Assembly (NCBI RefSeq): GCF_050920415.1
Contig: NZ_CP169310.1
Direction: 5' to 3' (one strand)
Origin: Escherichia coli
GTDB lineage: Bacteria; Pseudomonadota; Gammaproteobacteria; Enterobacterales; Enterobacteriaceae
DNA: 64,000 nt
Shown here piece by piece: positions 10,417 through 11,106 of the stretch. Each line of letters opens with the position of its first letter. The stretch's first letter is position 1. The notes under the pieces were generated by a model. That model saw nothing but the letters and a program-made list of their open reading frames with translations. It was not told the origin of the DNA and ran no database searches. Both the position numbers and the translations under genes were made by a program.

Positions 10417-10454
10417 ATTTCCCGCTTTTTACTACAGAAGCACGAAGGCGTCAC
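10417..10454. repeat. Short copy (A) of a conserved structured repeat flanking cargo genes
   Basis: ATTTCCCGCTTTTTACTACAGAAGCACGAAGGCGTCAC; matches both flanks of copy B (11012-11106) but lacks B's central roughly 57-bp hairpin segment. Confidence 0.6.
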
Positions 10455-10484
10455 TCCAGCCAATAAGTATGCTTTTTATTTACA

Positions 10485-10949
10485 TCAATTTTTAATCCGG
10501 TACCGACGTTTCCCTCCAATTAACTCGCTTTTCGTATGACTCATGGCAATAAAATTTTCTTTACCATATGACAACATCCCAATAATATCAAAGTTGTCTT
10601 TTAAGTTGATGGCATCCTTTTCACTTACAGCGACAATAAGTTGTTTACCAAATTTTCTGGCCATCATTGCAAACTGTGATACTGCTGATCCACCACCTAA
10701 ATCAGGCCATCCAACACAATTAAAAATGATTGTGAGCTCATCACTATTCATTGCATCCCTGATAAAGGAGACAACATTCTCATTTTTCTCTACATCTGAA
10801 TCACTGTTAATCTGGGTGAAATCATAATATTTAGAACCAGGTATAGAATCCCCCTTAAAAAACTTATCAATGTGAGAGGCAGAATTCCCCACAATAAGAA
10901 TATTGTGTTCACACTTAATCATTAATTCTGATACATCATCATATTCCAT
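10485..10949 (-). CDS. Hypothetical protein (154 aa), AT-rich cargo gene
   Basis: AT-rich ORF between repeat copies A and B; motifs LIVGNSASH and CVGWPDLGGGSAVS loosely suggest a nucleotide-binding fold, unverified. Confidence 0.5.
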   Translation of the reverse strand: MEYDDVSELMIKCEHNILIVGNSASHIDKFFKGDSIPGSKYYDFTQINSDSDVEKNENVVSFIRDAMNSDELTIIFNCVGWPDLGGGSAVSQFAMMARKFGKQLIVAVSEKDAINLKDNFDIIGMLSYGKENFIAMSHTKSELIGGKRRYRIKN

Positions 10950-11011
10950 ATATTCACCATTATTATATAAAGTTTAGGTACAGGTGGTTCCGGAATTTAC
11001 TCTGTGGCCAC

Positions 11012-11106
11012 CATTTCCCGTTTTTTATTACAGAAACGCCGGGAGCGGGGAAAACTTGCTTTTTCCCGTTTCCGGGGTTGGACAACTGAGCAACGCGAAG
11101 GCGTCA
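11012..11106. repeat. Full copy (B) of the conserved structured repeat
   Basis: Shares AAACGCCGGGA...GGGGTTRGACAAC...GAGCAACGCGAGGCGTCAG with copy C (23471-23552); contains an internal hairpin. Confidence 0.6.

Follow-up and report, generated by a model that had tools for sequence, protein, structure and literature searches.

A candidate structured backbone element at accessory-gene junctions of F-like conjugative plasmids and an optional gene located between two of its copies

Introduction

Integron cassettes, composed of an ORF and an attC site, are promoterless-looking co-oriented genes, each followed by a structured 3' site, and the ~80-nt element described here, which follows genes of F-like conjugative plasmids, resembles them in this respect. 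Like attC, the element has a structure that is conserved above its sequence, its folding is favoured opposite to the coding strand and stop codons are located inside it; in both cases, the single-stranded DNA of conjugation would favour folding. Unlike attC, the element has a linker and flanks that are invariant in sequence, it forms arrays of one or two units and it has no attI. Intrinsic terminators are similar to the element in that a GC-rich hairpin directly follows genes and precedes the next promoters, whereas the stem of the element is imperfect on the gene strand and fully paired on the opposite one, and it is accompanied by a second hairpin and by a long single-stranded linker of invariant sequence.

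Conjugative plasmids also contain single-strand initiation signals (ssi) and single-stranded promoters (Frpo) (PMC7690428). The hairpin of the element, under selection on the strand that an F-like plasmid transfers, is comparable to these signals; Frpo, in contrast, is much longer, is located in the leading region and contains promoter-like boxes, and the element has neither such boxes nor a DnaA box or a conserved CTG start. The boundary 'linker' sequences of mosaic phage and plasmid genomes are likewise short, conserved and placed between swappable modules in many left and right combinations, but the element differs from them in being itself structured, covarying and strand-biased, and its ends are sharply defined. 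Conjugative plasmids encode small P-loop NTPases (~150 aa) as well, and a 154-aa protein encoded between two copies of the element has the same size and the same neighbours (thermonuclease, Hha, DUF2726) but, unlike these NTPases, possesses neither a Walker A nor a Walker B motif.

The locus studied belongs to a 64,000-nt stretch of Escherichia coli DNA from contig NZ_CP169310.1 (hereafter, the window), where an AT-rich gene is bracketed by two direct copies of a repeat, A and B. A reading of this locus made from the sequence alone (hereafter, the original prediction) had described the arrangement as a site-specific cassette insertion or a recombination footprint.

Results

Plasmid context of the repeats

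The window represents an F-like conjugative plasmid of the IncFII and MOBF12 types, where RepA1, CopA, CopB, Hok, FinO and TraX were all found (Table 1); positions 10000-11700 are 100% identical to the E. coli plasmid NZ_CP012500.1. The 154-aa gene and the repeats occupy an accessory-gene slot, with finO on one side and the hok-copB-repA replicon on the other. The placement of the gene between a pnd toxin locus and a DUF2726-like gene, proposed in the original prediction, agrees with the Hok-family toxin gene and the sok hit on one side and with the DUF2726 annotation on the other. Rfam matches in the window comprise CopA, sok and the antisense RNA AS-pc02, described from plasmid pHK01 (Rfam); the AS-pc02 match, situated between finO and the Hha-like gene, coincides in part with an ORF of 84 aa on the minus strand. 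A sequence scan indicated a promoter-like site on the hok side (10408-10381).

The + strand is antisense to every gene in the finO-replicon region, and it contains an exact match to the F nic sequence, GTGGGGTGTGGTGCTTT. In F, the orientation of the nic strand at oriT tells which strand is transferred by conjugation, so the + strand of the window can be taken as the conjugatively transferred strand. In the leading region, two near-identical segments of the + strand (~52448-53018 and ~60587-61157), ~8.1 kb apart, include the same ORF pair and the same sequence around 52501 and 60640; these duplicated segments could be repeated leading-region signals.

Table 1. Features of the window discussed in the text; positions are counted from its first nucleotide.
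Feature	Position	Strand	Remarks
RepA1	8380-9249	minus	
CopB	9548-9796	minus	
Hok/Pnd-family toxin gene	10080-10229	minus	Downstream neighbour module
sok	10217-10374		Rfam match
Copy A	10416-10453	+	Decayed element: left flank and end of right flank; 57-bp hairpin segment absent
154-aa gene	10485-10949	minus	AT-rich accessory gene; degenerate relative of small plasmid P-loop NTPases
Copy B	11012-11107	+	Intact element; covariance-model core 11029-11108 (108 bits, E 2e-25)
Hairpin HP1 of B	11039-11075	+	16 bp, loop CTTGC
Invariant linker GGGGTTGGACAAC	11074-11086	+	
Small hairpin HP2 and element end	11093-11106	+	ACGC-GAAG-GCGT; end GGCGTCA
DUF2726 (yihA-like) gene	11104-11694	minus	Upstream neighbour; annotation in matching plasmids; stop codon inside B
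Hha-like gene	11732-11941	minus	
AS-pc02	12190-12372	+	Rfam match, 197 bits
FinO	12616-13176	minus	
TraX	13231-13968	minus	Remaining tra operon beyond, also minus
217-aa ORF	22656-23309	minus	Between C and traD
Copy C	23478-23554	+	Third full copy; traT-traD intergenic, after traT (61.8 bits, E 9e-14)
203-aa ORF	23621-24232	minus	Between traT (stop near 24304) and C
F nic match	48873-48889	+	

Relationship between the two flanking repeats

The repeats share a left flank of 24 nt (10416-10439 and 11012-11035, 92% identity) and a right flank of 18 nt (10436-10453 and 11089-11106, 83% identity). The left flank has only these two matches in the 64 kb, with 0 expected from shuffles. Thus, the shared flanks and the hairpin segment of ~57 bp present in B alone, both reported in the original prediction, are real, and the positions proposed for B hold, while those of A shift by one base (10416-10453 instead of 10417-10454). 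The 57 extra bases of B (11036-11092) contain the hairpin HP1, with the arms at 11039-11054 and 11060-11075. Folded as RNA, the + strand of B reaches -35.9 kcal/mol (z = -3.5), whereas the minus strand folds no better than shuffled sequences (z = -0.5); three G.U pairs of HP1 on the + strand correspond to A.C mismatches on the minus strand. The TGA stop codon of the DUF2726 gene (bases 11104-11106) is located within B.

Direct repeats AACGC are found in B at 11035-11039 and 11092-11096, 57 bp apart. Removal of one AACGC together with the interval gives CAGAAACGCGAAGGCGTCA, and the actual sequence of A, CAGAAGCACGAAGGCGTCA, is two substitutions apart from it. In a locus containing a 79%-identical variant of the gene (L099), the A-type remnant reads CAGAAACACGAAGGCATCA; a hairpin-less remnant follows the 154-aa-type gene in all variants examined, including this one, and it has decayed further in locus L106 and in loci L003, L075 and L077. 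These comparisons show that A is a full element that lost its hairpin via a slipped 57-bp deletion between the AACGC repeats, and the recombination footprint suspected in the original prediction can be understood as the footprint of that deletion. The loss predates the diversification of the 154-aa gene family, and the 154-aa gene formerly carried a full 3' element, as its 127-aa paralogue still does.

Distribution and anatomy of the element

Copy B represents the intact form of a structured backbone element of ~80 nt that is conserved but uncatalogued. B-type elements were found in more than 5000 F-like plasmids of PLSDB, commonly in 2-3 places each; typical plasmids contain one copy after traT and another between the last accessory gene and hok or copB. 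A search of the window with a covariance model built from 18 element variants revealed only B and C as full copies. The original prediction correctly recognised A and B as repeats and missed C, whose R100 counterpart (L009, 28295-28371) is located directly after traT. A weak match to the model within the gene adjoining oriT (49098-49171, + strand; 17 bits, E 0.019) is probably due to chance. None of the Rfam families matched A, B or C, even at E values of up to 10, and a literature search for the element, the linker sequence or the slot found no description.

The anatomy of the element was deduced from 143 copies gathered from plasmid and metagenome loci. The order includes a T-rich lead, GAAACGCC, HP1 with a stem of 16-19 bp, the linker GGGGTTGGACAAC and a short second hairpin ending with GGCGTCAG; the right end is sharp, and unrelated sequences start immediately past GGCGTCAG. 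In the gene-strand reading, GCGUUUC constantly trails the hairpin. Directly 3' of the stem, the + strand has GGUUGGAC and the minus strand has CGUUUCUGUAAU, neither of which contains a U-rich tract. A scan of 100,044 species genomes, with one genome per species, detected the conserved right half of the element at only 8 loci, all of them F-plasmid-like. At the two standard junctions the element was never missing, being contained in all full-length matches evenly sampled across 1823 and 2328 plasmids.

Several known identities were considered for the element and rejected. The attC identity disagrees with the GTTGGAC located 3' of the hairpin, which has no complementary RYYYAAC on the 5' side, the stem base being formed by CCGG/CCGG plus AAC/GTT; extrahelical bases and an unpaired spacer are absent, with 16 of 16 pairs formed in most variants, and no integrase is encoded in the finO-repA slot of any annotated relative. 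A miniature mobile element of the MITE, REP or PATE kind was rejected on the grounds of the confinement to F-like plasmids (the 8 loci mentioned above) and the two full copies in 64 kb, as well as the lack of element-less junctions among the sampled plasmids and of visible flanking duplications. As regards a single-stranded promoter or a G4-type priming site, the stem accommodates no -35/-10 pattern, and copies of the traT and Klebsiella types lack the CTG past the hairpin.

The element and the oriT of the window are alike over no more than 13 nt at the hairpin apex, with a rank of 41 among 2794 tiles. The apex of HP1 (AAAACTTGCTTTTT; 11039-11075) resembles that of the oriT inverted repeat (AAAAACTTGTTTTT; 48856-48873) on the same strand, being written in that comparison as AAAACTTG(C)TTTTT, and the resemblance is not statistically exceptional. 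R100-type plasmids have a nic sequence different from that of F, and the linker of the R100 element is identical despite this, which argues against an oriT- or nic-like site.

Covariation and strand bias of the hairpin

HP1 is represented by ~30 sequence variants, and the stem is kept in all of them. In 26 hairpin variants, 97.6% of the cells pair on the + strand (12 unpaired cells) versus 88.5% on the minus strand (57 unpaired cells), and 8 of the 19 HP1 pairs change on both sides. The observed values of pairing and covariation were reached by 0 of 500 shuffles, and slid registers did not come close either; hence, the covariance analysis recommended in the original prediction came out in favour of a conserved hairpin. 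A model-guided alignment of 45 distinct copies agrees with the covariation of HP1, and in the same alignment the second hairpin, HP2, has no compensatory change and a conserved register is unsupported for it.

The wobble pairs are distributed unequally: 47 cells are G.U on the + strand, becoming A.C on the opposite one, versus 3 wobble cells on the minus strand. These counts refer to sequences and not to independent events, of which there are perhaps 8-10. The + strand hairpin is more stable in 24 of 30 variants, with a mean difference of 5.5 kcal/mol, and DNA parameters lead to the same result; in the commonest variant, the gene strand forms 12 of 16 pairs, with an energy of -12.9 kcal/mol versus -23.9 kcal/mol on the + strand. 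The pattern of substitutions shows that HP1 is under selection, which the G.U excess assigns to the + strand of the window. Part of the wobble asymmetry could be due to C-to-T deamination confined to the transferred strand.

The element as a junction between interchangeable genes

The finO-replicon slot behaves as a mosaic junction. Clustering of the 300-nt flanks of the element yielded 17 right and 11 left clusters in ~30 combinations. According to protein content, the finO-replicon copies are followed by copB, hok, the 154-aa gene, a PLD (phospholipase D) gene or a 337-aa gene, and the traT copy is followed by traD or the 217-aa ORF; the upstream neighbours are DUF2726, the 127-aa paralogue, a 110-aa gene, hha, finO, a 102-aa gene, DsbA, traT and the 203-aa ORF. 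Every copy of the element is located 0-120 nt after a co-oriented gene, often with the stop codon inside, and the last three bases of GGCGTCA form the TGA stop of at least four unrelated upstream genes. The original prediction had taken the repeat for a part of a cassette, but B turned out to be a general backbone element joining many different gene pairs. Homologous recombination alone does not account for the abutment of many unrelated sequences on the same end, GGCGTCAG, which hints at a more precise mechanism.

Of the sampled traT-type copies, 26 have the 217-aa ORF and 20 lack it; variation thus extends to the left side of C. A second cargo insertion next to the element is represented by the 203-aa ORF, which has no family match and corresponds to only 34 nt in R100; it is rare, being found in 2 of 50 traT-type copies. 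A Klebsiella-type F-like contig (L045, 9935-11135) contains two full elements 1.1 kb apart around the 337-aa gene, each of which gives a TGA stop to the gene upstream of that copy; no match to this gene was found in Pfam or NCBIfam. In NZ_CP135489.1 (L006, 4306-6097), a group II intron (ltrA, domain V 5821-5854) is located beside a full element and what is left of the hok promoter region.

The 154-aa gene as an optional component

A single 154-aa ORF is located between the repeats, and its AT-richness, noted in the original prediction, is evident from a GC content of 0.32-0.38 versus 0.45-0.53 in the flanks. The gene is optional and is not a fixed part of the backbone. The gene or its relatives were found in 798 of 72,556 PLSDB plasmids, with at least 80% of the gene in 383 of those, versus more than 5000 plasmids for the neighbour genes and for the element each; among 93 sampled finO-replicon copies of the element, 10 have it as the downstream neighbour. 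A true empty site with the order hok-element-DUF2726 exists in NZ_CP076712.1; locus L010 represents the empty state and the window the filled one. The original prediction had opposed its variable cargo to a common backbone repeat with no variation around it; the repeat is indeed a common backbone element, but the cargo around it does vary, and both the empty and the filled sites anticipated across related plasmids were found.

The order in the window is DUF2726-B-154-aa gene-A, with co-oriented ORFs each having a 3' element. Locus L003 contains a tandem in which the element separates a 145-aa homologue from the 127-aa paralogue, locus L007 contains the 127-aa paralogue alone, and in loci L001, L029 and L030 hok and the element are followed by other genes. 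Co-oriented ORFs that each have a site, as in attC arrays, are thus found in the window, L003 and L045.

The 154-aa protein

Searches with the 154-aa protein in Pfam, NCBIfam, PADLOC, PHROGs and PDB sequences gave no match, and its close homologues are unnamed and confined to enterobacterial plasmids. A profile search among 1.8 billion proteins revealed relatives (140-165 aa) in which the Walker A (GxTGxGKS/T) and Walker B motifs are both intact. Some of them are encoded beside topoisomerase III (topB), thermonuclease (SNase), PcfJ, Hha and DUF2726 on other conjugative plasmids, and others are located inside a type IVb pilus operon. Three examples (L011 6001-6456, L012 6001-6459 and L016 6001-6846) lie between pilQ-like and pilR-like genes or just upstream of topoisomerase III, and one of the three is fused to an unknown 140-aa N-terminal domain.

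An hhalign comparison with the small P-loop NTPases resulted in a probability of 99.6% and an E value of 1e-23 over ~128 residues. At the Walker A position, GNSASHID replaces GxTGxGK[ST], with no agreement with GxxxxGK[ST] either; at the Walker B position, IIFN replaces hhhhD/E, and the Asn is invariant in the 154-aa family. The predicted structure (pLDDT 74) is a three-layer alpha/beta fold of a generic kind; KaiC, Twinkle and VirB4 were weak matches to it. The protein is thus a degenerate, probably non-catalytic relative of P-loop NTPases that kept the fold and lost both Walker motifs. This agrees with the original prediction of a nucleotide-binding fold as far as ancestry is concerned, but the motifs are lost, and the GGGS stretch aligns with a variable loop and not with the P-loop. 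The loss of both motifs suggests that the protein probably acts by binding rather than by hydrolysis.

Discussion

Taken as a whole, the explanation proposed here comprises a backbone element, a decayed copy A, a module reshuffled at the element, a degenerate protein and a role on the + strand; we estimate its probability at about 0.6. The 154-aa gene with its decayed 3' element would be an optional module, and reshuffling of the slot modules at the element would have placed this gene between hok and B, most likely by recombination between element copies located behind different genes. As for the role of the element itself, it may be a signal of folded single-stranded DNA on the transferred strand, e.g., for priming or handling of incoming DNA. 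This assignment, on which the strand bias of the structure and the identity of the transferred strand bear, is a tentative one with worse than even odds; in the element, no consensus priming or promoter features were recognised, and the stop codons in or before it fit a role at the mRNA level at least as well as one at the DNA level.

The location of the element after stop codons is the reason why termination is retained as a close second, itself rather unlikely: B and C would be ordinary terminators or 3'-end stabilisers of the gene-strand mRNA, forming a weak boundary. Copy B would stop the tra-finO-accessory block before hok and copB, C would act after traT, A would be a decayed terminator of the 154-aa gene, and shuffling would be a by-product of the shared sequence. 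The distance of 0-120 nt behind a co-oriented gene in all copies, frequently with the stop inside the element, is consistent with this, as are the positions ahead of the hok and copB promoters and after traT, sensible for regulation, and the GCGUUUC always next to the hairpin on the gene strand; a paper on F traS and traT reportedly describes terminator activity distal to traT. However, a U-tract is absent after the hairpin on either strand and the scan gave nothing resembling a terminator at B; in the commonest variant the stem is weaker on the gene strand (12 of 16 pairs), the minus-strand fold of B resembles shuffled sequences (z = -0.5), and the intermediates of stem evolution, counted by sequences, are G.U 47 times on the opposite strand versus 3 on the gene strand. 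That preference for the + strand would also suit an element that encodes or terminates an antisense + strand RNA acting on the 3' ends of upstream genes, and such RNAs exist in this region of related plasmids, AS-pc02 being an example. The left contexts of the copies differ, leaving no conserved promoter on that side, a U-tract is missing here as well and no Rfam family matches; of all the readings, we give this one the least credence.

A true cassette system is improbable too. The element would then be a strand-specific recombination site folding in single-stranded DNA, similar to attC or HUH hairpins, and a plasmid or host enzyme would insert and excise units of a gene plus a 3' element on the folded transferred strand during conjugation. 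Such units do occur in tandem and in one orientation (the window, L003 and L045), many unrelated sequences meet the identical right end GGCGTCAG, the structure is kept more than the sequence on the strand opposite to coding, as in attC, and GTTGGAC matches the GTTRRRY pattern. Against this, GTTGGAC has no RYYYAAC partner across the fully paired stem without extrahelical bases, arrays do not exceed two units, the element has no presence/absence polymorphism at the standard junctions and is absent outside F-like plasmids, and the divergence of A and B is old, so no recent insertion is visible. The gene maps of relatives contain no integrase as a consistent neighbour, and neither a recombinase nor core sites or a defined crossover point could be found; the site-specific cassette insertion of the original prediction is accordingly not upheld.

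Resistance and virulence genes of E. coli, Klebsiella, Shigella and Salmonella are carried mainly by F-like plasmids, and the points where these plasmids swap accessory genes are marked by a conserved strand-specific structured element that is absent from Rfam and from the literature searched. Action on the transferred strand would make the element a new cis-acting conjugation signal located beyond the leading region; a role as a recombination site would account for the build-up of small genes in the slot. An unrecognised F-type cassette-like system would turn the finO-replicon slot and the traT-traD gap into small arrays for units of a gene plus a hairpin, and even a mere boundary hairpin would still be a handy landmark for the annotation of plasmid mosaics. 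The 154-aa protein, in turn, adds a case of a plasmid P-loop protein with the fold retained and the catalytic motifs gone.
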